Of a stretch of DNA of 32,000 bases, positions 4,497-30,546 are shown one piece after another. Where the stretch lies: NCBI GenBank assembly GCA_008932965.1, contig WBXG01000007.1:5902-37901 (forward strand), written 5' to 3'. The stretch's first letter is position 1; the number at the start of each line of letters is the position of its first letter. The notes under the pieces are model-generated. The model saw only the letters and a program-made list of their open reading frames with translations, made no database searches and had not been told where the DNA came from. This stretch comes from Verrucomicrobiota bacterium. Lineage in GTDB: Bacteria > Verrucomicrobiota > Verrucomicrobiia > Chthoniobacterales > UBA6821. Made by a program: the position numbers and the translations under genes.

Positions 4497-4545
4497 CTAG
4501 CCCGCATATTTCATACCGATCGTAAGGAATAGCAGGTGCAAGTTG
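4497..4545 (+). repeat. fold-back element family: solo left-arm fragment
   Basis: CTAG-CCCGCATATTTCATACCGATCGTAAGGAATAGCAGGTGCAAG matches the left TIR plus about 20 nt of the arm of reference copy 18683..18866. Confidence 0.7.
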
Positions 4546-4678
4546 AACTCCATTTTTCAGTTTCATCCATCAATAGAAAGTCCTGGTTACAAAAACATCG
4601 ATTTTTAACCTGAATACTCTTTACCCTGTACCTACCTCTCTCTATTTTTAATCAATCTTTTTTATTGCCGTTATTCCT

Positions 4679-5155
4679 GTGAATATTTTTTTCCAAGACT
4701 GGTCTTACAATCGTGGAAATCTACGAAGTCAGAGTGTTCTTCTTTTATTTCGCATAGCACATTGCTTTCACCGACTCCCTCCTACCTCACGCTGGATCGG
4801 TTATCCCTATTTTCTCTTATACGAGCTACTCGTTGTTTGGATCTTAGGGATTGAACTCAGTTATAAAGCAACCATTGGCCCTGGACTGCGGCTCTTTCAC
4901 GGAGTTGCTACCGTGATTCATGAATCAGTAGTAATCGGTAAAAATTGCACTCTTCGGCATTCCACAACAATAGGAATGAGACATGAGACAGAGGCTGTTC
5001 CCACTCTTGGTGATCATGTTGATATTGGATGTCAAAGCGTTATTATTGGACCTATTCACATTGGGAATGCAGTCGTTATTGGTGCTGGTTCCGTAGTTCT
5101 CCATGATATCCCAGATCATAGTGTGGTAGCTGGAAACCCTGCTCGTATTTTATGA
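4679..5155 (+). CDS. hexapeptide-repeat (left-handed beta-helix) O-acetyltransferase, serine acetyltransferase/WcaB-like
   Basis: GTG start. The C-terminal repeats IGKNCTLRHSTTIG..., LGDHVDIGCQSVIIGPIHIGNAVVIGAGSVVLHDIPDHSVVAGNPARIL are typical of LbH acetyltransferases. ATGA overlap with the next gene. Confidence 0.75.
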   Translation: MNIFFQDWSYNRGNLRSQSVLLLFRIAHCFHRLPPTSRWIGYPYFLLYELLVVWILGIELSYKATIGPGLRLFHGVATVIHESVVIGKNCTLRHSTTIGMRHETEAVPTLGDHVDIGCQSVIIGPIHIGNAVVIGAGSVVLHDIPDHSVVAGNPARIL

Positions 5156-6243
5156 AATTTCTTTTCTTCTCGGGGCATGCGCATCTAGCACTTGACCCAA
5201 ATGCAGGTGAAGCCTCTGGAGGTGCAGAGTTGCAAGTAGCTTTGCTTTCAAAAGAACTTGTACAACGAGGTCATGACACAACCATCATCGCTACAGATAC
5301 AGGTCAGGAAGATGCTGTTTTTTGGGAAGGGATTAAAGTGTGCGTCGCACGTAGATTTGATAGCAGCTCCTTTTGGAAAAGCGCGTTAGCAATCCCATCG
5401 GTTTTGCGCATTATTGTTGAAGAAAAACCTGATGTGGTTGTGGTTTATGGGTGGACAGCATGGCTCTATCTCTTGGCTCAGTGGAGTAAAGTATGTCGTT
5501 ATCGGCTTGTTTATGTCTGTGCTCTCGATTCAGAAATTGAAGGTACATTCTCCTACACTCATCGTTTTTGGGGATGGCTTTTTAAACGAGGAATGAGACT
5601 CTGCCATGTACGTTTTGGAATCACAGAGCATCAAAAACAGCTCTTCCATCAACAAGGGATGAGCTGTTTTTTAACACGCCTGCTTTTACAACAAGCTCCA
5701 GCAGTCACCTCTTCTATCATCGAAAAACCGATCGATCTTCTTTGGGTAGCCCGTTGTAATCAAGTAAAGCAGCCACTTCAATTTTTAGAACTTGCCAAAA
5801 GATTTCCTCACGTACGCTGTCAGATGATTTGTTCGAATCAAGATCAAGAACTTTGGAAGGAAGTGAAGGACCAAGTTCAACATTTAGATAACATCGAGTT
5901 TCTCGAAGTTGTTCCCTACCGTGATATTCAACTCTATTTTAATCGAGCTAAGATTTTTGTGAATACCTCACTTGAAGAAGGGGTCCCTAACACCTTTATT
6001 CATGCAGCGCTAGGACATACGGCTATTGCTTCACTACGTGTGGACCCTGATCAGATGTTTGATCACTTTGAAGCAGGTTTTTGTGCACAAGATAATAGGG
6101 GATATTTTTTTGAAAGGATTCAAAAGTTACTTCATCAGCCAGATCTTTTATCTCACGCACAATCGGAAGCGGCTCGTTTTGTGAGCACTTGGCACAATAA
6201 TAAAAAAAATATGGATAGCTTTCTTCAAGGAGTAGAGCAATGA
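5152..6243 (+). CDS. glycosyltransferase, GT-B fold (family 1/4-like)
   Basis: 363-aa ORF. The N-terminal GGAELQVALLSKELVQRGHD block and C-terminal FVNTSLEEGVPNTFIHAALG block resemble GT4 enzymes. Overlaps both neighbours by 4 nt, so it looks like an operon. Confidence 0.7.
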   Translation: MKFLFFSGHAHLALDPNAGEASGGAELQVALLSKELVQRGHDTTIIATDTGQEDAVFWEGIKVCVARRFDSSSFWKSALAIPSVLRIIVEEKPDVVVVYGWTAWLYLLAQWSKVCRYRLVYVCALDSEIEGTFSYTHRFWGWLFKRGMRLCHVRFGITEHQKQLFHQQGMSCFLTRLLLQQAPAVTSSIIEKPIDLLWVARCNQVKQPLQFLELAKRFPHVRCQMICSNQDQELWKEVKDQVQHLDNIEFLEVVPYRDIQLYFNRAKIFVNTSLEEGVPNTFIHAALGHTAIASLRVDPDQMFDHFEAGFCAQDNRGYFFERIQKLLHQPDLLSHAQSEAARFVSTWHNNKKNMDSFLQGVEQ

Positions 6244-7379
6244 AGCGAGTATTGCATGTCATCGATCATCTTCAATTGGGTGGAGCTCAATCTTTATTGT
6301 TAGATTTAGTAACCTTAATGGAAAAATCAGAATGGCACTGTGAAGTTGCTTCCATGCATGGACGTGGTCTTTTTGCAGAACTCTTAGAAAAAAAAGGAAT
6401 CTCAGTCCATTCCCTCTCTCCCTCCTTATGGCCACCGTGTTATCTTGCTGCATTTGCAAGCCTCCAATCTCAATTTGATATTCTTCATTTTCATCTTTCG
6501 GGTTCCAATTGGATTGCCAAACCCATGGCAGCTCTCCTTGGAAATCAACCCCGGATATCACATGATCATGGGAGTGATGATTTTCGTTTTCGTGGTAGGG
6601 GATTTGTTTTAATGGATGCCATCATGCATCGCTTTTCAACACACACGATTGCCGTCACACCGGAGGTAAAACAATTTTTAACCCATTATGAAGCTCTTAC
6701 TGCGGAGTCAGTCACAGCGATCTCAAACGGAATCAACGTGGAAGAATTCCGTCCTTTTACTTCAGAAGAAAAAAAAGAAGCCCGTCTGTTTTTTGATTTG
6801 CCCTCGGAAGCATTTGTGGTGGGCACGGTAGGCCGTCTTGCGCCTGAAAAAAACCAAACACTTTTCTTGAAAGCCGCTAAAATTGCTCTCGAGCAAGGAT
6901 TGAAAGCTACTTTTCTAATTGCAGGGACAGGCCCCGAAGAAGCAGCTTTAAAAAAATGTGCTGCACAACTTGGCATCGAACATAGTGTTCGCTTTTTAGG
7001 ACAGATTAAAGATCGCGTCCAGCTCTACCGTTCATTAGATCTATTTGTACTAACCTCACGCTTTGAAGGTTTGCCAATGGTACTTTTAGAGGCCATGGCT
7101 TCAGGAATACCAGTTGTAAGCACCGATCTTGAGGGAATTCATCATGCACTTGAGGGAGGACGACATGGTCTCTTGATTCCCTCGGAGGATGAGATAGCTT
7201 TAAGTGACTGCTTGCTGCACTCCCATGAACGAATCCAACAAGAATCTTTGCGAAGTGCACGTCTTAAAGTAGAATCAGATTTTAGCGCTCAGAAAGCTGC
7301 TAAGAAGTTAGGGGATTTATATCAGTCACTTCTGAGCCCGAATATTTCACACCGATTACCTATGGAAGCCGGAAAGTAA
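6240..7379 (+). CDS. glycosyltransferase family 1 (GT4-type)
   Basis: HVIDHLQLGGAQSLLLDL, GRLAPEKNQ and LTSRFEGLPMVLLEAMASGIPVV (EX7E motif). The last ~47 nt, including the stop codon, lie inside repeat copy 7333..7610. Confidence 0.85.
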   Translation: MKRVLHVIDHLQLGGAQSLLLDLVTLMEKSEWHCEVASMHGRGLFAELLEKKGISVHSLSPSLWPPCYLAAFASLQSQFDILHFHLSGSNWIAKPMAALLGNQPRISHDHGSDDFRFRGRGFVLMDAIMHRFSTHTIAVTPEVKQFLTHYEALTAESVTAISNGINVEEFRPFTSEEKKEARLFFDLPSEAFVVGTVGRLAPEKNQTLFLKAAKIALEQGLKATFLIAGTGPEEAALKKCAAQLGIEHSVRFLGQIKDRVQLYRSLDLFVLTSRFEGLPMVLLEAMASGIPVVSTDLEGIHHALEGGRHGLLIPSEDEIALSDCLLHSHERIQQESLRSARLKVESDFSAQKAAKKLGDLYQSLLSPNISHRLPMEAGK

Positions 7380-7610
7380 GTGTGGACGCTTTATTGAGCT
7401 CGAAGTCTTCCTTGGGCGGTAGGTATTCATACAGCCCTGCATCAAAATGCTTGCCTGCGTTGACTCACTCGCTCCCACTCGTTTCCCCCTTTTAGGGCTT
7501 CCTAAGAGGCTCCTAAGAGACAGTCTCCCCCGCGGTCTCCAGACCACCGGTGGTGCCCTATCAGTCTTCGCGACCTCCTCTTTACGATCAGTATGAAATA
7601 TGCGGGCTGG
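7333..7610 (-). mobile_element. fold-back (MITE-like) element, full copy carrying the nested GC-rich cassette (7460..7555)
   Basis: The termini CCCGAATATTTCACACCGAT ... GATCAGTATGAAATATGCGGG are inverted repeats. The interior is colinear with copies 19599..19804 and 29326..29585. The flanks are degenerate here (TGAG/CTGG). Confidence 0.9.
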
Positions 7611-7715
7611 GAGAATTTAATCTTCATTTTCTTTTTTTTACTGTTTCTTTTTTAGTAAAAGGACCCATGCTCAAGTTTGTTTGTTTTGGTCTTTTAATGT
7701 TTAATTTTTTGAAAA

Positions 7716-8219
7716 ATGCAACCGATTTCAATTGCCTGTTTTAATCAAGATATTTGGATTCGCGTTACCGGTCGTGGAAATTTTTTATGTAGTGCAGCTC
7801 TAAAACAGATAGTGCAAGAAATGATTGAAAAAGAATACTACCATTACGTCATTGATCTCAAAGAGTGCGAACAGCTTGATTCCACATTTATGGGGACAAT
7901 TACAGGAATTGCTCAACGTCTACGCCAGTATCAGCAGTCACTTTTTAAAGTGGTCAATGTAAGTCAAAGCAATCAAGATCTCATGGAAAATCTCGGACTT
8001 GATGAACTTTTTTGCATTCAATCCTTGTCGATGAAGCATCAGCTTCCACCCGATTTAAGCCCCTCCTGTTTTACAGAGTCGTCGTTTTATATTCCCCCAG
8101 CGGAGGAAAAAGAAAAAATGCACGAAGTGGTTGTTTCAGCACATCAATCATTGGTAGAGGTAAATAAAGATAATGCTGAAAAATTTAAAGATATTATTGA
8201 AGCCTGCTCGAAGGATTAA
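7716..8219 (+). CDS. STAS-domain protein (anti-sigma-factor-antagonist-like) with a C-terminal extension
   Basis: 167-aa ORF. The segment IRVTGRGNF...HYVIDLKECEQLDSTFMGTITGIAQRL has the layout of a STAS/SpoIIAA fold. It lies immediately upstream of a PP2C phosphatase. Confidence 0.6.
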   Translation: MQPISIACFNQDIWIRVTGRGNFLCSAALKQIVQEMIEKEYYHYVIDLKECEQLDSTFMGTITGIAQRLRQYQQSLFKVVNVSQSNQDLMENLGLDELFCIQSLSMKHQLPPDLSPSCFTESSFYIPPAEEKEKMHEVVVSAHQSLVEVNKDNAEKFKDIIEACSKD

Positions 8220-8276
8220 AAATTTCATTGCATAGGCTTGTAGTTTCTATTTGGGGATGCTGTTATTAAAGCATCC

Positions 8277-9737
8277 ATGTTCTCTACTTTCGGATTTTAT
8301 CTGACGATATTTTTATTGCTTGTTGTTTCCATTGTGCTCGCAATTATTTTGAGGGTTCAGAGGCGGCGTGTTTCTCAGTTAAAAAAATCACGTCTCGAGA
8401 TTCAGGAAGAAGAGGATCGGGTTTTTGATTTCTTGCATGGTTTAGGAGAAGCTTTTTCTGGAGGAGTTCATCCTCCTGAACTTCACCGTCTTATTGTAGA
8501 GGGCGCGATTCGTATTTTAGCTGCCGAGGGAGGTGCGCTTTACCTTGTTGACCCAGAAGAAAAGATGCTAGTTCCTGCATTTTTTACCGATGGAACACCC
8601 CCGCTCGTGGTCATTCCTGATTTTGTGATACAAGCAACTCCCTCATTGCTTTCACTCTATGGTGTTAAACAAAAATTACTTTTTTCTCTTAAGAATTTTT
8701 TAAAATTACACAATGTCTCACGTCATGAAGGATTACTTGGGGAGGCTTGGGATTGGAATAAGCCTCATTTTTTTAATCATGAAACATTGCCTTCGTCCTT
8801 AATTGCACAAGGGCTTGATACAGTTTTTTTAGGACCATTGATTTATGGTGGAAGAACACTGGGTGTGTTAGCTGTGACCAATGGTGCGAATACCTCTTTT
8901 TCTCAAGGAGGGCTGGAACTTTTTTCTGCAATTGCTGAACAATCTGCTTTTGCACTTTATACTCAAGTTGTTTACAAGGAAGCAGAAGAAAAACGCTTGT
9001 TAGATCATGATTTAGAAATTGCACGTGAAATTCAAAAAATTCTTTTGCCATCAGATCCCCCTTTAGTTCCTGGTTACCAGATTAGCGGTATTAATATTCC
9101 CGCACGATCATTAAGTGGTGACTATTTTGATTACCTCTTAGTTGATCAAGAGCACATCGGTATCGCCATTGCTGATGTTTCTGGCAAGGGAATTCCAGCT
9201 TCACTTATCATGACTCTTTGTCGTAGTTCGCTTCGAGGGCATGCCTTTGATGAAGTTTCTCCCTCCAGTGTCTTGCATCGTGTTAATCGACAGCTCTATT
9301 CTGATATGAGAGAGGATATGTTCATCAGTATGGCGTACGTCACTATTAATCTAAAGACACATCAAGCTCTCCTAGCCAGAGCAGGACATGATGCCCCACT
9401 TTTTTATCGTGCTCGTGATTGTTCTGTTGAACGTCTTAATCCAAAAGGAATGGCTGTTGGGATTGACAGTGGAAAAGTCTTCGATAGATTCTGTACTGAC
9501 TTTCCTTTTCACTTCGAGCAAGGAGATTGTCTTCTGCTTTACACAGATGGAGTTACTGAAGCAACAGATCATCATGGTGTTGAATTTGGAATCAAACGTC
9601 TCATGCAACACCTTGAGAAAAATGCTTTAGATAGTTCCGAAAATCTTCTAAAAAGACTTGCTGATGACATCCGGGTCTTTATCGATAACCAGGTTCAGCA
9701 TGATGACATCACTCTTATTACCATTCGCAAACTGTGA
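8277..9737 (+). CDS. membrane-anchored GAF-like sensor / PP2C (SpoIIE/RsbU-type) serine phosphatase
   Basis: N-terminal TM helix (FGFYLTIFLLLVVSIVLAIIL). PP2C blocks present: LEIAREIQKILLP, SGDYFDY, IADVSGKGIPASL, LLLYTDGVTEA, QHDDITLITIRK. Confidence 0.85.
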   Translation: MFSTFGFYLTIFLLLVVSIVLAIILRVQRRRVSQLKKSRLEIQEEEDRVFDFLHGLGEAFSGGVHPPELHRLIVEGAIRILAAEGGALYLVDPEEKMLVPAFFTDGTPPLVVIPDFVIQATPSLLSLYGVKQKLLFSLKNFLKLHNVSRHEGLLGEAWDWNKPHFFNHETLPSSLIAQGLDTVFLGPLIYGGRTLGVLAVTNGANTSFSQGGLELFSAIAEQSAFALYTQVVYKEAEEKRLLDHDLEIAREIQKILLPSDPPLVPGYQISGINIPARSLSGDYFDYLLVDQEHIGIAIADVSGKGIPASLIMTLCRSSLRGHAFDEVSPSSVLHRVNRQLYSDMREDMFISMAYVTINLKTHQALLARAGHDAPLFYRARDCSVERLNPKGMAVGIDSGKVFDRFCTDFPFHFEQGDCLLLYTDGVTEATDHHGVEFGIKRLMQHLEKNALDSSENLLKRLADDIRVFIDNQVQHDDITLITIRKL

Positions 9738-10318: not shown

Positions 10319-10349
10319 TATCTACTTGAAACCCTAGCAGAACTGCATG

Positions 10350-10402
10350 TTAACCCGAATATTTCATACTGATCGTGACGAGGAGGTCGCGAAGCCAGAT
10401 GT
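10350..10402 (+). repeat. fold-back element family: left-arm fragment
   Basis: TTAA-CCCGAATATTTCATACTGATCGTGACGAGGAGGTCGCGAAGCC is near-identical to the start of copy 18683..18866. No convincing right end. Confidence 0.8.
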
Positions 10403-10543
10403 GTGATACTGTAGACTCTTATTTTGAGTTGGGCCGTCTTATCAAGGCCTTCTATACATTCATCTGAGAGAGGTTCGGTTATTTTGTTATCTATTTTTTC
10501 TTTTAAATGTCTTTTTTCAATACTCCATTCCTAAACATGTTCC

Positions 10544-11710
10544 ATGACTAAACGAGATTATTATGAAATATTGGGGGTCTCTCGTACTGCCCAGCAAGAA
10601 GAAATTAAGCGCGCCTATCGTAAGCTAGCTGTCAAATATCATCCTGACAAAAATCCTGGAGATGCATCTTCTGAAGCCTCTTTTAAAGAGCTTGCTGAGG
10701 CCTATGATATTATTAGCGATGCCGATAAAAGAGCTGCTTATGATCGCTATGGCCATGCTGCTTTTCAAGGTGCCGGAGGTCGTGGTGCAGCTGGAGGTTT
10801 TCATGATCCTTTTGATCTCTTTCGTGAGATGTTTGCAGGTCAAGGAGGTAAGGCAGGAATGGGAGGAATGGGAGGAGGAATTTTTGAGCAATTTTTTCAG
10901 GGTGGGGCAGAGGCTTCCTCGCGTGATGGAAAACAACGAGGGGCAGATCTGCGTTATGATCTTCAAATTACCCTAGAAGAGGCGTTCTCTGGCTGTGAGA
11001 AAGAAATAGAAATCCAGAAACTTGATGCTTGTCAGACCTGTGATGGCTCTGGAGCTGCTCCAGGGGCTAAAACGGCATCATGCTCTCTATGCCAAGGGAG
11101 AGGTCAGGTAGCAATGTCTCGTGGATTTTTTCAGGTAGTTCAAACGTGTCCTCAATGTCATGGAGCTGGTCAAGTTATCGATAAGCCATGCCAAAACTGT
11201 CGAGGAGAGGGGTGTGAAGAGAGGGTCTCACGTATTACTCTTAAAATTCCTGCAGGCATCGATGAAGGGGCACGACTTCGCTCTTCGGGATCTGGTGAAG
11301 CTGGGATAAGAGGTGGTGGGAAAGGGGATCTTTATGTCATTATTCATCTCAAAAAACATTCTGTTTTTGAACGAGAGGGGATGAATCTTCATTGTCAGAT
11401 CCCTATTCCATTTTCGATAGCTGCCTTGGGGGGGGAAGTCAAGGTTCCAACGCTGTGTGGGCTTGTAGATTTAAAAATTGTTTCAGGAACACAGAGTGGT
11501 TCTACCTTTTCTATTCGTGGTTCAGGAATGCCTTCACTGCAAAGCCCACGAAAAGGAGATCTCTACGTACGGGTTGAAGTCGAAGTTCCAACAAAGCTCA
11601 ATGCAGAACAGCGTCAGGCTCTAGAAAAATTTTCTCAACTTTGTGGGGAGGAAAATACCCCCTTACATCGCAGTTTTACAGAACGGCTTAAAGACTTTTT
11701 AAGTAATTAA
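10544..11710 (+). CDS. dnaJ: molecular chaperone DnaJ
   Basis: J-domain with HPD (KYHPDKNP), a Gly/Phe-rich linker, and four CxxCxGxG repeats ([32 protein letters not shown]). Confidence 0.95.
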
Positions 11711-11712
11711 TT

Positions 11713-11755
11713 TTAGCTCGGATATTTCATCCTGATCTATTATGAAGCCTTCTCG
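11713..11755 (-). repeat. fold-back element family: arm fragment
   Basis: TTAG-CTCGGATATTTCATCCTGATCTATTATGAAGCC resembles the start of copy 22217..22401 (CCCGAATATTTCATCCTGATCTACTACGGAAGAC). Confidence 0.65.
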
Positions 11756-11835
11756 TTTCCTCAATGCCAGGAGTTATTAGTTGTGAGTTGCTCACAAATT
11801 CTTTAGCATTACCAAAACTATCTTCATCTAAAATT

Positions 11836-12435: not shown

Positions 12436-12582
12436 TTTTTTGCAAGCAATGAAGAGCTGTTGCTCTCGTTGTTCATAGGAATGGATGCCGTTAGCATCTT
12501 CCTTCTTTGGTGCACAGCACCCGTTATCTTAATCTTTTTTTTCACAAGTTTTCCAACAGAGGATTTTTAATTTTTATCTACG

Positions 12583-13815
12583 GTGTTTTCTCTTAATTCC
12601 AATTACCTTAAACTTAAAGCCGGTTATCTTTTTCCCGAAATAGCACGACGCGTTAAGGAGTTCCTTGAGGCTCATCCTGAGGCTGCGACTGATTTGATTC
12701 GTTGTGGTATTGGAGATGTTACAGAGCCTCTTCCTCGTGCTGTATGTGATGCGATGCATTCAGCTGTCGATGAAATGGGAATACGAGAAACGTTTCGTGG
12801 ATATGGACCGGAGCAAGGATACGATTTCTTGAGGAAGCTTATTGCAAAGCATGATTATCAATTTCGAGGGGTAACAGTAGCTGAGGACGAAATTTTTATC
12901 TCTGATGGCTCCAAATGTGATGGAGCGAACATCCTGGATATTTTAGGCAAGAATAATCGTATTGCTGTGATGGATCCTGTTTATCCCGTCTATGTCGATA
13001 CAAACGTCATGGCGGGACGTACTGGTAATATGCAGGATGATGGCTCTTACGAAGGGATCACTTACCTTGAATGTAATCATGAAAATGGTTTTGTTCCTTC
13101 ATTACCTCAAGAAAAAGTTGATATCATTTATCTCTGCTATCCAAATAATCCGACTGGTGCGGTCGCCTCTCGTGAAGCACTTACTCGTTGGGTGGAGTAT
13201 GCACGGAGTCACCATTCGTTAATTCTTTTTGATGCAGCTTATGAGGCATTTATTCAGGACCCCGATATACCTCACTCCATTTATGAAATTCCTGGAGCCA
13301 GGGAATGTGCTCTTGAGTTGCGAAGCTTTTCCAAAAAAGGAGGGTTTACGGGTGTGCGTTGTGCTTTTACTGTTGTCCCTAAGGAGCTCCTGGCTAGGAC
13401 TGCCCAAGGAGGACAAGCCTCTTTACATCCATTGTGGAATCGTCGCATGACAACCGCTTTTAATGGGGTTAGTTATATTACACAACGTGGAGCAGCGGCA
13501 CTTTATTCAGAAGAGGGTCAGGCTCAGGTGCAGTCTCTTATTACTCATTATATGGGAAATGCTGCTCTCTTACGTGAGGCAGTAATAGCAGCAGGGCTTA
13601 CTGTTTATGGAGGAACAAATGCTCCTTATCTTTGGGTTCAATCTCCTCTAGGAGAAAAAAGTTGGGAAACTTTTGATCGAATGCTTCATGACCATCATAT
13701 TGTGGTCACTCCTGGAAGCGGCTTTGGAAGCGCCGGTGAAGGCTATTTCCGTATTTCCGCATTCAATAGTCGGGATAATGTGCTTGAGGTAGCAAAGCGA
13801 CTTTCTCTTCGTTAA
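12583..13815 (+). CDS. dapL: LL-diaminopimelate aminotransferase
   Basis: 410-aa class I aminotransferase. The N-terminus [20 protein letters not shown] and the PLP-lysine region [13 protein letters not shown] are typical of DapL. GTG start. The TAA stop lies in the TTAA flank of repeat fragment 13812..13869. Confidence 0.85.
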
Positions 13816-13869
13816 ACTGGATTTTCATACCAGTGACCTAAGGAGACCGGAAAGCCAGCGTGGATACTG
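13812..13869 (-). repeat. fold-back element family: degenerate arm fragment
   Basis: TTAA-ACTGGATTTTCATACCAGTGACCTAAGGAGACCGGAAAGCCAGCGTGGATACTG resembles the start of copy 29326..29585 (CCCGCATATTTCATACCGATCTACTGCGAAGACCGGGAAGCCAGGATGGATGCTG). Confidence 0.65.
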
Positions 13870-13893
13870 TTCAATAATCACAATTATTTCTAC

Positions 13894-16747: not shown

Positions 16748-16788
16748 ATTGCGCTATCAAGGTGATCAGTAGGAAAGATCCGGTTTAA
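16748..16788. repeat. fold-back element family: solo right terminus
   Basis: GGTGATCAGTAGGAAAGATCCGGT-TTAA versus consensus GATCAGTATGAAATATCCGGG-TTAA. Confidence 0.55.
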
Positions 16789-18009: not shown

Positions 18010-18074
18010 TTAACCCGGATATTTTATACTGATCGCGGCCTTCGCTGGTGATCAGAATGAAATATGCGGGTTAA
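18010..18074. mobile_element. minimal 65-bp fold-back element (two TIRs plus a short spacer)
   Basis: TTAACCCGGATATTTTATACTGATCGCGGCCTTCGCTGGTGATCAGAATGAAATATGCGGGTTAA, a near-perfect hairpin with TTAA at both ends. Confidence 0.9.
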
Positions 18075-18616: not shown

Positions 18617-18686
18617 TGAACGTAGTAATGATGAGCTCTCCACAAGCCGTAGTAGTAGTAGATTTAGTATGAAATATTTGGGCTAG
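18617..18686 (+). repeat. fold-back element family: right-arm fragment abutting the next full copy
   Basis: ...AACGTAGTAATGATGAGCTCTCCACAAGCCGTAGTAGTAGTAGATTTAGTATGAAATATTTGGG-CTAG parallels the right arm of 18683..18866 (AACGCAGCATCCATCTGACTTCCCAGCTTCCGTAGTAGATTGGTATGAAATATTTGGG-CTAG). It shares the CTAG at 18683-18686 with that copy. Confidence 0.75.
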
Positions 18687-18866
18687 CCCAAATATTTCAT
18701 ACTGATCGTGACGAGGAAGCTGCGAAGGGTGATGGGGCAAGGCAGTCGAGCATTTTGATGCTGGGCTGTATGAACACATACCGCCCAAGTCAAAATGGGA
18801 GTCTAACGCAGCATCCATCTGACTTCCCAGCTTCCGTAGTAGATTGGTATGAAATATTTGGGCTAG
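18683..18866 (+). mobile_element. fold-back (MITE-like) element, full core copy, used here as the orientation reference
   Basis: CTAG-CCCAAATATTTCATACTGATCG ... GATTGGTATGAAATATTTGGG-CTAG. The whole 184 bp is a long imperfect palindrome centred near 18772. Confidence 0.9.
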
Positions 18867-19417: not shown

Positions 19418-19585
19418 ATGAAACTGCCTAACAGTAATCATAAAAAATCTCTTCTTTGGGGAATTGATGTAGGTGGAACCAAAATAGAAGGAGTGATTAT
19501 TGATTCGTCTCAACAAAACCGAGCTCTCCATCGGCTTCGTGTTCCAACAGAATCTCCTCAAGGACCAGAACATATCATGAGGTAG
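19418..19585 (+). pseudogene. N-terminal remnant of a ROK-family sugar kinase, cut off at repeat copy 19599..19804
   Basis: MKLPNSNHKKSLLWGIDVGGTKIEGVIID carries the ROK/ASKHA phosphate-1 motif (GIDxGGT). The ORF stops after ~55 codons, 13 nt before the element. No continuation exists downstream, where clpS lies on the opposite strand. Confidence 0.65.
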
Positions 19586-19598
19586 TTACAGCTTCTTG

Positions 19599-19804
19599 TT
19601 AACCCGGATATTTCATTCCGATCACCTGCGGAAGCCGGGAAGCTAGGGTTGATGCTGCGTTGGTCTCGAATTGTGATTCGGGAGGTAGGGACTCTACAGC
19701 CCTGCATCAAAATGCTCGCCTGCGTTGACTCGCTCGCTCCCACGCGGTCTCCCATCAGCCTTCGCAGCCTCCTCATCACGATCAGTATGAAATATCCAGG
19801 TTAA
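19599..19804 (-). mobile_element. fold-back element, full copy with a minimal cassette (19725..19752)
   Basis: TTAA-CCCGGATATTTCATTCCGATC ... GATCAGTATGAAATATCCAGG-TTAA. Lies between the ROK remnant and the clpS stop codon. Confidence 0.9.
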
Positions 19805-21343: not shown

Positions 21344-21418
21344 AGTTATCCCCATCCGTATTGAAAAGTAAAACTAGTTTGGCTGCCTTGCATAGATTTG
21401 AACTATGACAAGCAGATT
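21344..21418. repeat. 75-bp direct repeat, copy 1: duplicate of the tRNA-Gln 3' half (nt 36-74) plus 36 bp of downstream flank
   Basis: AGTTATCCCCATCCGTATTGAAAAGTAAAACTAGTTTGGCTGCCTTGCATAGATTTGAACTATGACAAGCAGATT is identical to 21518..21592 except for one T/C difference. Confidence 0.9.
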
Positions 21419-21517: not shown

Positions 21518-21592
21518 AGTTATCCCCATCCGTATTGAAAAGTAAAACTAGCTTGGCTGCCTTGCATAGATTTGAACTATGACAAGCAGATT
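21518..21592. repeat. 75-bp direct repeat, copy 2 (part of the intact tRNA-Gln locus)
   Basis: See copy 1. It covers the 36-bp flank plus tRNA nt 36-74. Confidence 0.9.
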
Positions 21593-21627
21593 CAGAGTCT
21601 GCTGTGCTACCGTTACACCACAAGGCA
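21554..21627 (-). tRNA. tRNA-Gln: tRNA-Gln (anticodon CUG), CCA encoded
   Basis: Folded by hand from TGCCTTGTGGTGTAACGGTAGCACAGCAGACTCTGAATCTGCTTGTCATAGTTCAAATCTATGCAAGGCAGCCA. The 7-bp acceptor stem starts with a U1-A72 pair and has discriminator G, as in bacterial tRNA-Gln. The D stem is GTGT/GCAC. The anticodon stem is GCAGA/TCTGC with loop CTCTGAA. The T stem is CATAG/CTATG with loop TTCAAAT. Confidence 0.9.
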
Positions 21628-21637
21628 ATACATTGTC

Positions 21638-22216: not shown

Positions 22217-22401
22217 TTAACCCGAATATTTCATCCTGATCTACTACGGAAGACGGGAAGCAAGGGTGGATGCTGCGTTAGGCTCCCATTTTGACTTGGA
22301 CAGTACCTACTCATACAGTCCTGCATCAAAATACGTGTCTGCCTTGCCCCATCAGCCTTCGCAGCTTCCTCGTCACGACTAGTATGAAATATTCGGTTTA
22401 A
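22217..22401 (-). mobile_element. fold-back element, full core copy
   Basis: TTAA-CCCGAATATTTCATCCTGATC ... GACTAGTATGAAATATTCGGT-TTAA. Colinear with the reverse complement of 18683..18866. Confidence 0.9.
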
Positions 22402-22510: not shown

Positions 22511-22864
22511 TTAACCCGCCTACTTCATACCGATTCTGCTGCAGCTTGCGAACACCTGATAGATACTGCGTCAGTCTCGAATTGCTCCTCGGGCAGTATG
22601 ACTACCGGCAGCGGGGAAGCTGCGGGAGAGATTGTCGCAAAGCGACAACCCGAAGGGCGAGACGAGCGAGAGCGAGCGAGTCAAACTACAGCCGTCGTCG
22701 CAATCCATCACCTTCGTTGACTCGCTCGCTCCCGTTCGTCTCGCCCTTTCAGGGCTGCCCCCTAAAGCCAGGGCAGTCTCCACCACGGTCTCCCGACCGC
22801 AGGTGGTTTCTGTATCAGGATTCGAGGCGCCTTGCGACGAACCAGTATGAAATATGCGGGTTAA
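22511..22864 (-). mobile_element. composite 354-bp fold-back element with two inverted copies of the GC-rich cassette (22611..22684 inverted, 22717..22806 direct)
   Basis: TTAA-CCCGCCTACTTCATACCGAT ... ACCAGTATGAAATATGCGGG-TTAA. The left ~90 nt is colinear with copy 25457..25640. Internal inverted repeat: GAAGGGCGAGACGAGCGAGAGCGAGCGAGTCAA / TTGACTCGCTCGCTCCCGTTCGTCTCGCCCTTTC. Confidence 0.9.
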
Positions 22865-22923
22865 TTGAGGATGGACTATCAAGGAGAGCGCAGAAGTGGT
22901 AGCAATGATAACAATTATAGAAG

Positions 22924-24042
22924 TTACAAATAGAGTGCATTAACTAAACGCTGTGTTCGTGGCCCTGAAAGAACACCATGATGCATCACATTGGGTACAT
23001 AGGCGAAACCCCATTCACGTTCTGGATCAGCAAAGGCAAGAGTTCCTCCTGCTCCTGGATGGCCAAAAGCTCGAGGATTTTTTCCCATGATCTTGGAGTT
23101 ATTATTTACCATTAATCCTGCTGAGAAAAAAGTTTCCTGCTGGAGTACCCGATCTATTCCAGATGCCATTGGTGTTTCCATGAGGTCGCGTGTTTTTTTA
23201 TTAAAAAAAGGACGATCCTCATCCATGGCCACAAGTGAGTAAAATTTGGCAAGTGCAGCAGCATTACTAATAGCACCTGAAGAAACAATAGAGGCTCGAC
23301 GTAGCTCTGGACGATTCATGGATGCCATTGGAAAACTTCCTCCGGGTTCTATGAATGCTCGTCGTGTCAGGGTAGTAGGATCAATGTAAGCAGCGCTAAA
23401 ATCACTTGGTGGAGCTGCGGTTTTAGGTGGTATAATAGTTGCTGCTCGATCGAGATGTGCCTCCGGAAGACCAAACCAAAGATCAATTTCAAAAGGGTCT
23501 GCAAAATGTGTGCGCCAGTAGGAGGAGAGGGGGACTCCATCGCAAAGACGCCTTAAGAGTTCATCTACAAGAGAGCCGAAAGTACGAGCCCCATAACCAT
23601 GGCTCCCATCGTAGGGCCAGTTAGATGGCTGCTTAGCAAGAGCCTCAACAATTCCTGCATGATCAGTAAGCAAAAGCCCTTTTTGGTCGAGTGCAGCAAG
23701 ACCAGCGCGATGCGAGAGGAGTTGAGCAATAGTAATATTTTCTTTACCGGCTTGTGCAAATTCTGGCCAGAATGTAGCCACTTTTTCCTCTAAAGAAATG
23801 TTTTTTTCTTCAAGAGCATGAAGAAGAGTAGTAGCTGCAATTCCTTTTCCTGCTGACCAAATCAGCGAGAGTGTTCTCTCCGTCCAGGGTTTCGTTTGTG
23901 ATGTATCACACCATCCCCCATACAAAGAGATGATTTTTTCTCCGCGGTGATAGAGAGCCAGAGAGGCCCCCATTTCAAGATCTTCGTCAAAATTATGTTG
24001 AAATGCACAGGAAAGTTGATCTGAAATTTTAGAATAGTTCAT
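22924..24042 (-). CDS. serine hydrolase, beta-lactamase/esterase (class C-like) family
   Basis: SxxK motif (SAGK in LIWSAGKGIAATTLL), plus LLSHRAGL and GHPGAGG. I prefer the ATG at 24042 (MNYSKI). The ORF track extends to a GTG at 24084, which abuts repeat fragment 24086..24253. Confidence 0.75.
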   Translation of the reverse strand: MNYSKISDQLSCAFQHNFDEDLEMGASLALYHRGEKIISLYGGWCDTSQTKPWTERTLSLIWSAGKGIAATTLLHALEEKNISLEEKVATFWPEFAQAGKENITIAQLLSHRAGLAALDQKGLLLTDHAGIVEALAKQPSNWPYDGSHGYGARTFGSLVDELLRRLCDGVPLSSYWRTHFADPFEIDLWFGLPEAHLDRAATIIPPKTAAPPSDFSAAYIDPTTLTRRAFIEPGGSFPMASMNRPELRRASIVSSGAISNAAALAKFYSLVAMDEDRPFFNKKTRDLMETPMASGIDRVLQQETFFSAGLMVNNNSKIMGKNPRAFGHPGAGGTLAFADPEREWGFAYVPNVMHHGVLSGPRTQRLVNALYL

Positions 24043-24085
24043 GGTGGATAAGCTCGAAATCTTCCTCAAGTAGTGGGTGCTCACA

Positions 24086-24253
24086 CAGCCACCATCGCCT
24101 TCTTTGACTCGCGCGATCCAGCTCGTTTCTTTTTTAAGGGCTTACTAACCTAACAACTGAGTTAGTAATCGCTCTGGTGGTCTTCCTGTCACGTCTGGTT
24201 TCTATACCAGGCCGCTTACCTTATAACATTTCAGTGTGAAATATCTGTGCTAG
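24086..24253 (-). repeat. fold-back element family: right-half fragment with cassette (24104..24182)
   Basis: CCACCATCGCCTTCTTTGACTCGCGCGATCCAGCTCGTTTC...GGTTTCTATACCAGG...TCAGTGTGAAATATCTGTG-CTAG parallels the right half of 22511..22864. Confidence 0.7.
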
Positions 24254-25314: not shown

Positions 25315-25456
25315 AAAAAGAGTATTTAGAAGTTTGGTAATTTTTAGCTACTTGGTCCAATGAGTTTGGAATATCCTAGCGAAGTAAGTATTTAAATTAG
25401 TAGCATTAGCGGAAGTGTACAATTTCAAAATTGGAAAAAAGGAAATAAGGGTCAGG

Positions 25457-25640
25457 CTAACCCGCCCATTTCATACCGATTCTGCTGCGGCTTGCGAACA
25501 CCTGATGGATACTGCGTCAGCTTCGAATTGCTCCTCGGGCAGTAGGGACTCATACAGCCCTACATCAAAATGCTCGCCTGCCTCACCCCATCAGCCCCCG
25601 CGGCCTCCTCGTCACGATCAGTATGAAATATCCGGGTTAA
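25457..25640 (-). mobile_element. fold-back element, full core copy (variant left arm shared with 22511..22864)
   Basis: CTAA-CCCGCCCATTTCATACCGAT ... GATCAGTATGAAATATCCGGG-TTAA. Confidence 0.9.
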
Positions 25641-25649
25641 AAGTTCTGT

Positions 25650-26681: not shown

Positions 26682-26794
26682 GTTGAGAGTGTTAAATTCC
26701 AGCTACCATCGGGGAGTGAGGAAGCTTTGTAAAAAACATTCTTAAAAAAAGTTCCGATATCATGGCCTCTGCTTCTACTTTGGTATCTGCAATT

Positions 26795-27931
26795 TTAGGG
26801 AGCAAGTTCTCTGAGTTTTTGAACCACACGTGGAATGATGTTTAATGCATGATCGATTTCTTCTTCTGTGGAAAAACGTCCTACAGAAAAGCGTAGGCTC
26901 GAGCTTACTTCATCATGAGTGAGTCCCATAGCTGAGAGGACATGGGAGGGGGTTTTCGATTTCGTATTGCAGGCAGATCCAGCAGAACAGCAGAGACCTT
27001 CCAGATCTAAAAGGAGTAGTGCCTCCACTGCTTGAATCCCATGAAAGCAGAGGTTGCTTGTATTGGAGAGGCGATTTTTTTTAACTCCATTGAGAGAAAC
27101 TCCTTCTATCTTTTCTAATAATGTTTTTTCTAAGCGATCGCGCAAGGCGCATTCACGCTTCATTTCATGAAGGAGCATCTGGTGTGCTAGTTCTGCTGCT
27201 TTTCCTAAAGCAATGCATGAAGCAACATTCTCGGTGCCACCGCGGCGTCCATTTTCTTGAGAGCCAGGAAAAAGAGGTCTAAAGAGAGTGTGTCGGTGAA
27301 CATAGAGTGCACCAATCCCTTTGGGTGCATAGATTTTGTGACCTGAGAGCGACAGATAATCGATAGGAAGTTTTGATAAATCGATTGGTATTTTTCCGAT
27401 AGCCTGAACTGCATCGAGATGAAGGGTTACTTTTTTTCTTTGTGTGATCTCAATTATTGTTTCTATTGGGAAAATTACGCCCGTTTCATTATTGGCCCAG
27501 ATCAAGGAGAGAAGGGCTGTTGAGGGGGAGATCGCTTCTTCTAATGCATCGAGGGAGAGCATTCCCGAAGAATCAACTGAAAGCTCTGTTATCTCATAGC
27601 CGAGAGTTTCATACTCATGACACAGGTTGCGTGTTGCACTATGTTCTGTGGTGGATGTCACGATATGACGCTTTGATGGATTAGAGCTTAGAGCGGAATG
27701 AAATGCTGTTGCTATTGATTCGGTGGCACCACTTGTGAAAAGTACTTCGCACGAGCGAGCTCCTATCAGTGCTGCTACCTGAGAACGTGCCTCCATAAGG
27801 GCATGAGCTGCTGTTCGTCCAAGAGTGCACATACTGGAGGGATTTCCATACTCCTTTTCCATAAAAGGGAGCATTGCTGCATATACCCCTGGGTCAATAG
27901 GGGTCGTTGCATTGTAGTCAAGGTAAATCAT
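26795..27931 (-). CDS. nifS: cysteine desulfurase (NifS/IscS type)
   Basis: IYLDYNATTP, the PLP lysine in SGHKIYAPKGIGALY, and the active-site loop CCSAGSAC. Confidence 0.9.
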   Translation of the reverse strand: MIYLDYNATTPIDPGVYAAMLPFMEKEYGNPSSMCTLGRTAAHALMEARSQVAALIGARSCEVLFTSGATESIATAFHSALSSNPSKRHIVTSTTEHSATRNLCHEYETLGYEITELSVDSSGMLSLDALEEAISPSTALLSLIWANNETGVIFPIETIIEITQRKKVTLHLDAVQAIGKIPIDLSKLPIDYLSLSGHKIYAPKGIGALYVHRHTLFRPLFPGSQENGRRGGTENVASCIALGKAAELAHQMLLHEMKRECALRDRLEKTLLEKIEGVSLNGVKKNRLSNTSNLCFHGIQAVEALLLLDLEGLCCSAGSACNTKSKTPSHVLSAMGLTHDEVSSSLRFSVGRFSTEEEIDHALNIIPRVVQKLRELAP

Positions 27932-27932
27932 G

Positions 27933-28502
27933 TTACCTCCTAGTAGCAGTGGCCAACACTCGTTGTTCTTTGTGCTGTGGAATGCTTTGACCTTCTCCGC
28001 TTGGTGGGATCGGTTGTGGGGGTAGCGGTCTCATATCGTCTCTACCATGATCCCCCTCTTCTTTGATGTGGGGATCGCAAAAGAGATCGATTGCTAGGAA
28101 TAAAGATTTGGCATGGCGTGCAAAAAAGAAATTAAAAAGAATGATAGGAACGACAACAAGTCCAATCAAATACCAGATAGGAAGGTCATAAAGAGATTCT
28201 AAAATGAGATAAATAATAATTCCAAAAAGGCTTCCTAAGCCGTAATTAATCGCCCAGATAGACATTAAAAAATAACCAGGTTCTCGTTCATAAGGGTAGC
28301 CGCAACGAGTGCAACCATCTAATGGGGTAAACCAGTCACGCAGAGAACGCGTGTTTAATAGTGGAATAAAAATTGGAGAAATTCCACAGAGAGGACAACG
28401 AAGTCGCAGTGCACGCCAAAAATAGAGCGCAGCACTATGTAAAGGGGAAGGAATTTTCACAGGAATAGAGGAGATCACGGAATCATTGAGACCAACGTCC
28501 AT
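27933..28502 (-). CDS. DUF983-like zinc-ribbon membrane protein
   Basis: Two CxxC pairs (CPLCG, CTRCG) followed by two TM helices. Its stop codon is 1 nt from the nifS start. Confidence 0.55.
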   Translation of the reverse strand: MDVGLNDSVISSIPVKIPSPLHSAALYFWRALRLRCPLCGISPIFIPLLNTRSLRDWFTPLDGCTRCGYPYEREPGYFLMSIWAINYGLGSLFGIIIYLILESLYDLPIWYLIGLVVVPIILFNFFFARHAKSLFLAIDLFCDPHIKEEGDHGRDDMRPLPPQPIPPSGEGQSIPQHKEQRVLATATRR

Positions 28503-29211
28503 GAGGCATCAGTGATGGATGCCATGAGGAATCGTCGCTGTTACTATAATCGGTAGGTCCTATCGCACCAATCATCGGTTGCTTGAGACTTCGGTACCAG
28601 CATTTGCTCATACTTTCTCCAGTGTGACATCCCCAGCTTTTAATGAAGGCATGAGGGGCAAAGTCGATCGGACTAATTTCATAGAGCTCCTTTTCATGAA
28701 GCCATGCTTTGGATCCCGTGTCGATTTGATTGCTGTAATCAAACATGAAGCAAGCGCGATTAGAATGACCAAAATATTCAAAATCGACGATCTTAACTTG
28801 GTCGCGTGGCTGACCGTTATTGAGATAATGGATGAGTTGTTGGTGGGAATTAAAGAAAACCAAGTGGAGGTTATATTTTTTTTGAACTGAAATAATATCA
28901 GCAAGGAGGTCTCTTTTTTCTTGGTGAGTACTCCGCCTCTCGTAACTCGGACGATAGACAAGCCAGGTAATCAAAGCATGAGGGCCCTCCTTGGCACGTA
29001 GTTCACTCAGACGAATCCGCGATGCATGGATAAAATTAGCCCACCAATGATCATGGGGTGTTTTTTTAAAACGCTCCCATTCGATAAGCGAAGGACCACC
29101 AGTAACAATCACATATTCCGGTTCAACACTGGTTAGAGGAGCAGCCTGGACGGCCTTGCAAGCAAGCAATAGCAGCAGGACACAAAGGGATAAGAGGCTA
29201 TTTTTTTTCAA
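28483..29211 (-). CDS. secreted hypothetical protein
   Basis: Clear signal peptide (MKKNSLLSLCVLLLLLACKAVQA). No family recognised. Confidence 0.55.
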   Translation of the reverse strand: MKKNSLLSLCVLLLLLACKAVQAAPLTSVEPEYVIVTGGPSLIEWERFKKTPHDHWWANFIHASRIRLSELRAKEGPHALITWLVYRPSYERRSTHQEKRDLLADIISVQKKYNLHLVFFNSHQQLIHYLNNGQPRDQVKIVDFEYFGHSNRACFMFDYSNQIDTGSKAWLHEKELYEISPIDFAPHAFIKSWGCHTGESMSKCWYRSLKQPMIGAIGPTDYSNSDDSSWHPSLMPHGRWSQ

Positions 29212-29325
29212 TTGGAGAGTTTTAAATATTTTTAACTATGAATGAGTAATATTCATTTCTGCTCTTCTAAAAGTCAAGGGATGCTGATTTTTAATCGGGC
29301 CGGTTGCAGCGTGTTCTTTTAGTCA

Positions 29326-29585
29326 TTAGCCCGCATATTTCATACCGATCTACTGCGAAGACCGGGAAGCCAGGATGGATGCTGCGTTGATCTCGAAGTC
29401 CGCCTCGGGCAGTATGAAACATACAGCCGTCATCAAAATACTCATCTGCGTTGACTCGCTCGCTCTCGCTCTTTCAGGGCTTTCTAGGGCTTTCTAGGGC
29501 TTTCTAGGGCTTCTAAAGGCAGTCGGCAGTCTCTCGACCTTCGGTGGTGCCCCTTTAGCCTTAGCGGCCTTCTCGTTACAATCAG
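29326..29585 (-). mobile_element. fold-back element with cassette (29451..29549); right TIR truncated
   Basis: TTAG-CCCGCATATTTCATACCGATCTACTGCGAAGACCGGGAAGCC... The right end stops at ...CTTCTCGTTACAATCAG and lacks the TATGAAATAT part. Confidence 0.85.
29471..29520. repeat. 10-nt tandem repeat (TTTCTAGGGC x3 perfect, plus degenerate flanking units) in the cassette core
   Basis: CTTTCAGGGC TTTCTAGGGC TTTCTAGGGC TTTCTAGGGC TTCTAAAGGC, read directly. Confidence 0.9.
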
Positions 29586-29640
29586 CGCCAATTTTTTAGA
29601 CTAAAATAGTATTTCAGAAGTAAAAAAAAATCTCTCAATG

Positions 29641-30546
29641 TCACATTTTTTGAGATGCTCGGAGTAGTGGGTGTTTTCTTTTTTCTTTCTCAGAGGAAGG
29701 TGATCTTTGAAAGCGCAATGGCACATTCTTTTTTTTAGAAGGGACCACTCGTACTCTCGCTGGTGATGTTGCAGTAGCTTTGACTAGAGTCTCAAGTTCT
29801 TGAGTGGTAAGCTCTCGATATTTTCCTAATCCGAGTTGGCGTAGTTTCAGCGGGCCAAGGCGCGTGCGTACGAGTCGCTTGACATCAAAACCGAGCTGAC
29901 CAAGCATCACACGGATCTGGCGCTTCAAGCCTTGATGCAGGACGAGTTTGATTTTACATGGTCCGAGTTGGGTTACCGATTCAACACGAGCGACCGCTCC
30001 CTCAATCCATGTTCCTTTTTTCAAGGCAGCAGCAGCTTTTTCAGTAAAAGGATGGTCCAAAATCACCTCATATTCTTTATCAATTCCACGTGAGGGATGG
30101 AGGAGCTGCTGAGACAAAGCGCCATCATTGGTGATAAGCAGGAGACCTTCGCTTTCCTTATCCAGGCGGCCAACGTGAAAGAGTGTGGAGGCCTCTGAAG
30201 GAAGAAGATCAAAAATGGTTTTCGCAGCAAAACGATCGGAACGAGTGCAAACATAACCAGCTGGTTTATGCAGCAATAAGTAGCGCAGAGGAGCTTGTCG
30301 TATTTGTTTTCCGTTCACTCGGACATCATCCTGAGGAGCGATTTTTTTTGATAAATTACGACAGAAGCTACCATTAACTGCCACTGAACCCTTGAGGATC
30401 AGTTCTTCCACAGAACGTCGTGACCCAAAACCAGCCGAGGCAAGAAATTTATTAATACGTATCCCATCTAACGCGGATATTTCACGCTGATTAAGACGAG
30501 GAGGCTGCGAAGGCTGATGGGGCTCGGAGAAAAATGGAGTTTTCAA
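29641..30546 (-). CDS. rluB: 23S rRNA pseudouridine synthase (RluB/RsuA family)
   Basis: S4 domain (RINKFLASAGFGSRRSVEELI), catalytic RLDKESEGLLLITNDG, and a basic C-tail. Residues ~9-27 are encoded by repeat fragment 30468..30523. Confidence 0.85.
   Translation of the reverse strand: MKTPFFSEPHQPSQPPRLNQREISALDGIRINKFLASAGFGSRRSVEELILKGSVAVNGSFCRNLSKKIAPQDDVRVNGKQIRQAPLRYLLLHKPAGYVCTRSDRFAAKTIFDLLPSEASTLFHVGRLDKESEGLLLITNDGALSQQLLHPSRGIDKEYEVILDHPFTEKAAAALKKGTWIEGAVARVESVTQLGPCKIKLVLHQGLKRQIRVMLGQLGFDVKRLVRTRLGPLKLRQLGLGKYRELTTQELETLVKATATSPARVRVVPSKKKNVPLRFQRSPSSEKEKRKHPLLRASQKM
30468..30523 (+). repeat. fold-back element family: left-arm fragment embedded in the 5' end of rluB
   Basis: CTAA-CGCGGATATTTCACGCTGATTAAGACGAGGAGGCTGCGAAGGCTGATGGGGC versus the reference CCCAAATATTTCATACTGATCGTGACGAGGAAGCTGCGAAGGGTGATGGGGC. 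Confidence 0.75.

Follow-up and report, generated by a model that had tools for sequence, protein, structure and literature searches.

Background

What is the short palindromic repeat that recurs between the genes of a 32,000-nt stretch of verrucomicrobial DNA (contig WBXG01000007.1, assembly GCA_008932965.1; hereafter the window), how did it come to be there, and which enzyme moved it? Sixteen loci with a common terminal inverted repeat (TIR) had been listed in a preliminary description made from the letters of the window. [quoted passage not shown] Every feature of a MITE that could be tested was found, namely the size and TIRs, a target-site duplication (TSD), no transposase of its own, and multiple copies with presence or absence at individual sites. 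MITEs are the least studied of the prokaryotic mobile elements, none was found for Verrucomicrobia in the searchable literature, and much of the non-coding DNA in genomes of its clade is accounted for by the present family.

Detection and census in the window

Coordinates are positions in the whole window, position 1 being its first letter. The TIR pattern CCCGNATATTTCATACYGATC was matched 20 times in the 32 kb at up to 3 mismatches (0.00 expected from 100 dinucleotide-preserving shuffles), and the same family was recovered independently by a repeat search of the window in both the direct and the inverted register. The element is 176 bp long, has TIRs of about 25 bp (CCCGNATATTTCATACYGATC...) and is an imperfect palindrome along its whole length; among 134 paired TIRs the modal length is also 176 bp. 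A nucleotide hidden Markov model (HMM) was built with nhmmer from 94 canonical copies taken from the window and from related DNA. It matched 15 of the 16 listed loci at the same coordinates (Table 1), and the sixteenth (16748) consists of a right TIR alone, at 16764-16784, that departs from the pattern at 3 positions. Element-derived DNA amounts to 2336 bp, which is 7.3% of the window (about 2.3 kb and 7% had been estimated) and 35% of its non-coding DNA, and 14 of the 21 spacers longer than 30 bp hold an element. Copies inside the window are ~65-92% identical pairwise over common stretches.

The preliminary description was largely borne out at the level of single copies, including the occurrence of both orientations and the minimal 65-bp copy at 18010-18074. 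One of the seven full copies listed, 29326-29585, is without a right TIR (HMM positions 1-165), and the supposed arm fragment at 24086 lies within a degenerate long copy of about 24030-24253. A further TIR-like match with 3 mismatches (10556-10576), absent from the earlier list, consists of the dnaJ codons GATTATTATGAAATATTGGGG for the start of the J domain (DYYEILG); it was rejected as a chance mimic and is a pitfall for motif-based counts.

Table 1. Element copies, fragments and repeat B in the window. B, nested repeat; ORF, open reading frame.
Position	Strand	HMM match	Feature	Context
4497..4529	.	4497	solo TIR fragment: CTAG, perfect TIR and ~8 nt	divergent spacer 3462..4475(-) / 4679..5155(+)
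7333..7610	+	7335-7608	long copy with nested B at 7460-7554	
10350..10439	-	10351-10439	half copy: TTAA, TIR and one arm	grpE-dnaJ spacer
11713..11747	+	11714-11747	TIR remnant, 35 bp	directly 3' of dnaJ stop
13812..13871	+	13821-13871	degenerate left arm	its TTAA holds the stop codon of aminotransferase ORF 12583..13815
16748..16784	.		solo degenerate right TIR, then TTAA	
18010..18074	.	18011-18074	minimal 65-bp copy: TTAA, TIR, 15 nt, TIR, TTAA; internal deletion derivative	
18617..18685	-	18619-18685	end fragment	adjoins next copy, CTAG common to both (tandem insertion)
18683..18866	-	18683-18865	canonical copy, 176 bp, CTAG/CTAG; frame 0 stop-free on both strands	
19599..19804	+	19599-19804	copy with 28-bp mini-B insert (19725-19752), TTAA/TTAA	
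21417..21502	+		stand-alone repeat B	between 75-nt direct repeats 21344-21418 and 21518-21592
22217..22401	+	22218-22400	canonical copy, TTAA/TTAA; reference orientation for the 92-copy alignment (A4)	
22511..22864	+	22511-22864	long copy with two B repeats, inverted: 22601-22684(-) and 22717-22807(+)	
24030..24253	+	24047-24097	degenerate long copy with B (24104-24181); right TIR 24229-24249, 5 mismatches	
25457..25640	+	25458-25640	canonical-length chimera: left half x/c, right half a/w; CTAA/TTAA	
29326..29585	+	29326-29585	long copy with B (29451-29548, including CTTTCTAGGG mini-tandem); without right TIR	
30468..30542	-	30468-30542	right-half fragment	start of RluB-like ORF 29641..30546(-)

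Distribution in related genomes and metagenomes

An exact-match TIR scan of 185,579 species-representative genomes returned at least 88 stretches. Among the matches listed, nearly all lay in four Chthoniobacterales ('Spartobacteria') metagenome-assembled genomes (MAGs) of other species, Kiruna_bin-02438, Tobar2m-G38, Deming_bin.170 and SMAG_U8253, and a metagenome scan gave 18 further loci. Three exact matches in Clostridia, Saprospiraceae and Chlorobiaceae MAGs were set aside as chance, being inside ORFs and without YTAR flanks, and neither PLSDB plasmids nor IMG/VR held a match to the element. Genes of the window are 75-86% nucleotide-identical to, and syntenic with, these MAGs, the window representing a different species of the same clade. 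Local duplication confined to the window, named earlier as one outcome that would deprive the family of interest, is not what was found, since the element is dispersed in four MAGs and several metagenomes. Solo TIRs, perfect or near-perfect and with TTAA or CTAG flanks, were also seen beside ordinary genes on contigs of higher GC content (51-52%), at 3013-3033 and 4289-4309 of locus L092 and at 738-758 of L099; more distant lineages may also carry the family or its TIR.

The HMM detected 173 element loci in related DNA totalling 563 kb. Their density is 307 per Mb, with 6.1% of bases covered, and is still at least 156 per Mb when one seed match per locus is subtracted; the window has ~470 loci per Mb. 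These estimates are drawn from one window and from loci fetched around matches, and those from fetched loci are biased upward. Exact matches to the window DnaJ were found in one contig of a JGI metagenome and one from Logan (L089 and L090; independent assemblies of the same strain), which start at window positions ~7513 and ~10357, both inside MITE copies. Because these contigs begin inside elements, the repeats evidently fragment short-read assemblies, and the family explains assembly breaks in these genomes. Such breaks probably hide both the copy number and any parent insertion sequence (IS).

Target-site duplication, mobility and age

Identical 4-bp YTAR flanks were present in 82 of 130 complete copies, as against ~31 expected. 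Among the non-palindromic flanks, CTAA/CTAA was found 10 times and TTAG/TTAG 4 times, with no case of CTAA/TTAG or TTAG/CTAA. Since these flanks are always direct repeats, YTAR is a TSD lying outside the TIR and not part of the inverted repeat, with which it had been shown in the preliminary description. A TA duplication with a TIR one base longer, as in elements of the Correia or IS630-Stowaway type, was considered and is ruled out by the CTAA/CTAA and TTAG/TTAG copies. Over the three bases on each side of the target site, G is enriched 5' and C is enriched 3'; the element ends recreate this context, which fits the tandem copies with one common TSD at L070, L082, L087 and window 18617/18683. 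All 15 HMM loci of the window lie outside genes, whereas 272 of the 357 free YTAR sites (76%) are coding (P ~3e-9), and strong purging of most genic insertions is therefore indicated. The idea that the TSD usually serves as a stop codon for the upstream gene was dropped, being true of one window copy only (13812).

Insertion can be read directly from several sites. On metagenome contig Ga0194051_1025719 (256-1200; locus L097), a canonical copy splits the gene of an IS30-family transposase in frame at TTAA, and deletion of the element together with one TTAA restores the IS30-family reading frame; an IS110/IS1111-like ORF, recognised by eye, lies downstream of this gene. Filled and empty orthologous sites, a comparison proposed in the preliminary description, were found for the MalQ gene, which has a 60-aa insert at L085 and none in the L033 ortholog with flanks conserved, and for several spacers filled in one species and empty in another. 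The half copy at 10350..10439 is missing from the orthologous grpE-dnaJ spacer of the Kiruna MAG (L007), and the degenerate arm at 13812..13871 is missing from the Deming MAG ortholog (L039).

Other insertions are old. The remnant directly after dnaJ (11713..11747) has a TTAG junction identical to that of a longer copy in the Kiruna MAG (L007), and is therefore an old common insertion that has decayed in the window. As the two species are ~77% identical at the nucleotide level, this orthologous insertion places part of the family before their split. Orthologous copies decay freely to stubs, and copies match their nearest neighbours at a median identity of 93.5%, the maximum being 97.4%. The family is thus old, vertically inherited and decaying in place, with some lineage-specific insertions.

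Folding and subfamilies

The consensus of 184 bp, comprising the 176-bp element and two TSD copies, folds as a single long imperfect hairpin (DNA fold -33.3 kcal/mol, z = -5.2; RNA folds -74 to -88 kcal/mol), in agreement with the long imperfect palindrome of ~185 bp seen earlier. Alignment of 92 canonical copies revealed a mosaic of four subfamilies with matched arms, w-a-a-w (37 copies), w-b-b-w (18), x-c-c-x (6) and y-d-d-y (3). About 15% of copies, including window 25457-25640, are chimeric with mismatched arms and have their breakpoint at the conserved centre; a deletion running from centre to centre of tandem copies could produce them. Applied to the alignment as a whole, RNAalifold gave no internal consensus because the subfamilies are mosaic, and a consensus of per-copy minimum-free-energy folds with pair counting was used in its place. 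The structure so obtained has 69 pairs, and 81.8% of its cells are paired.

From one subfamily to another, entire helix segments are swapped in a compensatory way (TTTTGAT/ATCAAAA, GAAGTCT/AGACTTC, ATTGC/GCAAT and TTGTGAT/ATCACAA), and there are 296 double changes where shuffles give 153 +/- 9. Neither of the two measures that are robust to relatedness reaches significance: 32 pairs show a double change versus 29 (72 of 500 shuffles reach it), and there are 86 pair types versus 86.6. The arms co-vary by subfamily, and selection for the hairpin is not demonstrated, because of these non-significant measures. The compensatory difference pointed out earlier, GGGC/GCCC versus GGAC/GTCC, is truly present and is rare in the family (A-U at that pair in 2 of the 92 copies). 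For 90 of the 92 copies the RNA fold of the strand opposite to the 22217-22401(+) orientation is the more stable one, with a mean advantage of 14.5 kcal/mol. Wobble-type mismatches favour this strand (6.0 vs 4.0 per copy) and explain the asymmetry only partly; the copies are not independent. No orientation bias relative to neighbouring genes was detected (27 vs 38, p = 0.21). Rfam returned only tRNA-Gln at gathering score, and under relaxed settings nothing came up but look-alikes of miRNA hairpins below threshold. By eye, GTGACGAGG...CGAAGG could be read as hammerhead-like, a reading that was dropped as stem II is lacking.

Coding capacity and residence within genes

Element plus one TSD measures exactly 180 bp, or 60 codons, in 59 of the 92 copies. 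In the frame that reads YTA as a Leu codon (frame 0) the consensus is stop-free on both strands, and so are the separate consensus sequences of the three main subfamilies; 1-7 stops occur in the four remaining frames. The plus-strand peptide is LTRIFHTDLLRRPGSQMDAAL...ALPHQPS.PPRHDQYEISGL and the minus-strand peptide LTRIFHTDRDEEAAKADGVRQ...LTQHPSGFPASAVD.YEISGL; 47 and 45 of the 92 copies are still open in these two frames, and the peptide belongs to no Pfam family. With the TIRs held fixed, the chance of openness on both strands is 1.7% when the interior is shuffled independently and 11.5% for a perfect palindrome, to be multiplied by 1/3 for length.

The statement that copies lie always between genes holds for the window and not for the family. 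Eleven of the 92 canonical copies (~12%) are in frame inside long ORFs that run on for 80 codons or more upstream and for 50 or more downstream, and both orientations occur. In the GH77 4-alpha-glucanotransferase MalQ of L085 (domain aa 35-615) the element occupies aa 502-562, within the domain; in GlnD of L019 it occupies aa 853-913, between the HD and ACT domains; and in PheA of L087 two tandem copies lie between the PDT and ACT domains. Copies were also found in several proteins of very large size, in a glycosyltransferase of the PMT type and in a PD-(D/E)XK nuclease protein. An earlier peptide search had given short ORFs only. An exhaustive HMMER search of 1.84 billion representative proteins returned 137 matches, of which ~20 are proteins of 200-1248 aa with the module internal and the others short 'hypothetical proteins'. 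Translation of intergenic element copies accounts for 59 or more database 'hypothetical proteins' of 49-105 aa. In an aldose 1-epimerase two stretches make up the domain match, and the module lies upstream of the larger stretch. Protein P0118 (576 aa) joins a Vut_1 transporter domain (26-164), the MITE peptide (339-400) and an FtsX permease domain (455-561) in a single ORF; read-through of an intergenic copy may have fused two genes here.

Gene ends in the window are affected as well. The last 14 codons and the stop of glycosyltransferase ORF 6240..7379 come from the left end of the copy at 7333..7610, and the first ~26 codons of the RluB-like ORF are supplied in frame by the copy at 30468..30542 (..PHQPSQPPRLNQREISAL|DGIRINKFL). 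For annotation these results are a warning that these short 'hypothetical proteins', and 60-aa inserts in enzymes like MalQ, GlnD and PheA, are element-derived.

Search for a transposase

No transposase was present among the window ORFs scanned against Pfam, in accordance with the earlier view that the copies here are non-autonomous, and the element's own ORFs gave no Pfam match across copies. TIR pairs 600-3000 bp apart enclose ordinary genes only, all 71 unpaired TIRs run into MITE fragments or nested copies, and all-against-all blastn of the loci returned orthologous genes only and no high-identity IS. A tblastn search with Escherichia coli IS5 InsH found nothing in ~795 kb, and a probe for IS30 found one IS30-family gene, itself interrupted by the element. 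The metagenome scan was run with a pattern that skips MITE interiors by excluding a G present 8 nt inside the TIR in every MITE arm, and each of its 18 loci proved to be a MITE variant or a solo TIR. That no transposase turned up is weak evidence, because short-read MAGs tend to lose IS copies. YTAR is a known TSD motif of IS5 (PMC10359306), and an enzyme of the IS5 family or a related one is therefore the most likely driver.

Origin of the element and alternative explanations

The course of events that we favour is as follows. A DDE transposase acting in trans would bind both TIRs and insert the element at YTAR with duplication of 4 bp, by cut-and-paste or copy-out. The family would have been amplified in an ancestor of an uncultured freshwater Chthoniobacterales clade and continued to move thereafter, the copies now passing vertically and decaying through internal deletions and truncations, through tandem or nested insertions and through the swapping of halves. 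Copies would pile up in spacers because gene-breaking insertions are purged. Where YTA is read as a Leu codon, the insert would amount to 60 sense codons either way, and the host protein would gain 60 residues (L-T/A-R-I-F-H-T-D...Y-E-I-S-G-L). The element itself would be selfish DNA, whose by-products are new protein segments and gene ends, and perhaps RNA hairpins.

Several points weigh against this account or parts of it. No transposase with these TIRs was found in the ~795 kb examined, the ends of E. coli IS5 (GGAAGGTGCGAA...) do not resemble the TIR of the element, and the IS5-type partner is one that we infer from the TSD alone. No identical copies or within-species polymorphism were seen, which leaves current mobility unproven. 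The densities from fetched loci carry the upward bias already stated. The open frame and the length divisible by three could be luck; given a non-negligible chance and open frames in only about half of the copies, the survivorship of a family that happened to be lucky accounts for the data no less well than selection.

The same MITE may instead have been driven by another 4-bp-duplicating transposase than one of the IS5 family, or by one now extinct in these genomes, which we regard as a real if lesser possibility. The TIR begins with CCCG, unlike the GGAAGG of IS5, no IS5-like protein occurs in the 795 kb, and the copies are old, no two exceeding the identity maximum given above. Members of IS1380 start with CC and make 4-5-bp duplications, and IS701 makes 4-bp duplications. 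Against another driver stands YTAR with a 4-bp duplication, a documented IS5 signature (PMC10359306). It is much less probable that the hairpin itself is the point, that is, that the host keeps a structured RNA or DNA (terminators, stabilisers or regulatory hairpins) and mobility is secondary. Strong folding, the compensatory helix swaps with their excess of double changes and the better-folded strand in nearly all copies would all suit a retained structure. They are countered by the non-significant covariation measures, the chimeras with mismatched arms, the lack of orientation bias, the free decay of orthologous copies to stubs, the missing Rfam match and the TSDs, which mark arrival by transposition.

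Still more doubtful is a mobile coding module, in which the element delivers a 60-residue peptide segment under selection. The length of exactly 60 codons, open on both strands in three subfamilies, and the inserts in conserved enzymes are what such a module would show, yet ~88% of copies are intergenic, only about half are open in either frame, the middle peptides differ between orientations, the chance expectation is non-negligible and the peptide is without a Pfam family. The palindromic form and the intergenic clusters of the elements could also recall REP/RAYT or IS200/IS605 (HUH) palindromes, or a local duplication or assembly artefact, and these we consider extremely improbable. To our knowledge, HUH-mobilised elements lack a TIR-plus-TSD architecture, and both TIR and TSD are present here; the copies lie at unrelated loci in several species and data sets, and those of the window are only ~65-92% identical to one another over common stretches. 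This last group of readings is refuted by the dispersal and TSD evidence, and a decayed, trans-mobilised MITE family is retained as the best account.

Repeat B and neighbouring features

Repeat B is 78-98 bp long, begins with TTGACTCGCTCGC, ends with ...CCGGTGGT, forms three hairpins and is without TIRs. The middle hairpin varies in sequence with pairing always kept, and double changes affect 11 of 17 predicted pairs in 14 copies; Rfam has no match to B. It sits almost always at two fixed MITE positions, in the right arm and, in opposite orientation, at the centre. In addition to the window copies (Table 1), 21 were found in related loci (e.g. L023, L038 and L058). Nested B accounts for the window copy lengths of 206 bp (element and 28-bp mini-B), 260 or 278 bp (element and B) and 354 bp (element and two B); the element alone is 184 bp, and 65 bp is an internal deletion.

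The stand-alone B copy lies in a further repeat structure. Two 75-nt direct repeats, 99% identical, each run from the anticodon loop to the 3' end of a tRNA-Gln and 36 nt downstream, thereby including the 3' 39 nt of tRNA-Gln(CTG) at 21554-21627(-), and enclose only 99 bp, made up of the B copy and then an inverted anticodon-arm-like 15-mer. The pair looks like the attL/attR of an integrase-type event around a tiny insert.

Two other features of the window were noted. At 19420-19585 there is a 55-codon N-terminal remnant of a ROK-family sugar kinase (recognised by eye from the motif GIDVGGTKIEG), with the rest of the gene missing and its stop 13 bp before the MITE at 19599; it is probably a pseudogene. 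The adjoining paralogs 1259-3439(-) and 3462-4475(-) have a common glycosyltransferase-like C-terminal region of ~330 aa (nucleotide repeat D3, 71% identical), and the larger has a long N-terminal extension of its own.

Comparison with known systems

Rickettsia RPEs are short palindromic repeats, many of them in frame in unrelated housekeeping genes, that encode a conserved peptide (PMC10969869). The present family resembles them as a many-copy short palindrome found in frame in unrelated protein genes with a conserved encoded peptide (60 codons, 11 of 92 copies). It differs in its host, a freshwater member of another phylum, in a probably unrelated sequence, and in its clear 25-bp TIRs, YTAR duplication and openness of the insert in both orientations. 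Its intragenic fraction of ~12% compares with nearly half of the first-described RPE insertions (PMC10969869). The tolerance of selfish palindromic DNA inside genes, so far examined mainly in Rickettsia RPEs, can thus be studied in a second system, which is independent and has TIRs and TSDs that are clear.

In its 4-bp YTAR duplication, TIR boundaries and non-autonomy the family is like IS5 and its MITEs, but the TIR is dissimilar (in comparison with E. coli IS5) and no IS5-type transposase was found in ~795 kb. The eukaryotic PIF/Harbinger-Tourist MITEs are distant relatives in this IS5-type comparison, and Tourist elements duplicate 3 bp. Correia elements of Neisseria (CREE/NEMIS) are ~100-160 bp long, have ~26-bp TIRs, form a long hairpin, occur in hundreds of copies in spacers and gene ends and show internal-deletion size variants; a parent transposase is not known for them. 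Correia elements duplicate TA, unlike the 4-bp duplication shown here, and the sequences are unrelated. Coxiella QMITE1, intragenic ERIC and the Cardinium and Wolbachia MITEs are also ORF-fused or dense in some genomes, and their hosts are mostly host-restricted bacteria, unlike the present ones.

In a census of 183,232 genomes the maximum was 123 MITEs per Mb and 1.23% of the genome, in Wolbachia (PMC11602168). Set against it, the present values, obtained by different methods and from a biased sample, suggest that MITE density here may exceed the census maximum: the window has ~470 per Mb and 7.3%, and related loci have at least 156 per Mb. Tentatively, and with the odds against it, the family could be an RPE counterpart outside obligate intracellular bacteria, possibly with the heaviest prokaryotic MITE load (6-7% of DNA and a third of non-coding DNA). 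It might be so shaped that insertion at YTA|R adds 60 sense codons either way, placing it in conserved enzymes and giving rise to new protein segments, gene starts and fusions, and might act as a landing pad for B. As observed, the element behaves like an RPE in genes and like Correia in spacers, uses the target of IS5, and by sequence is a member of no family compared.

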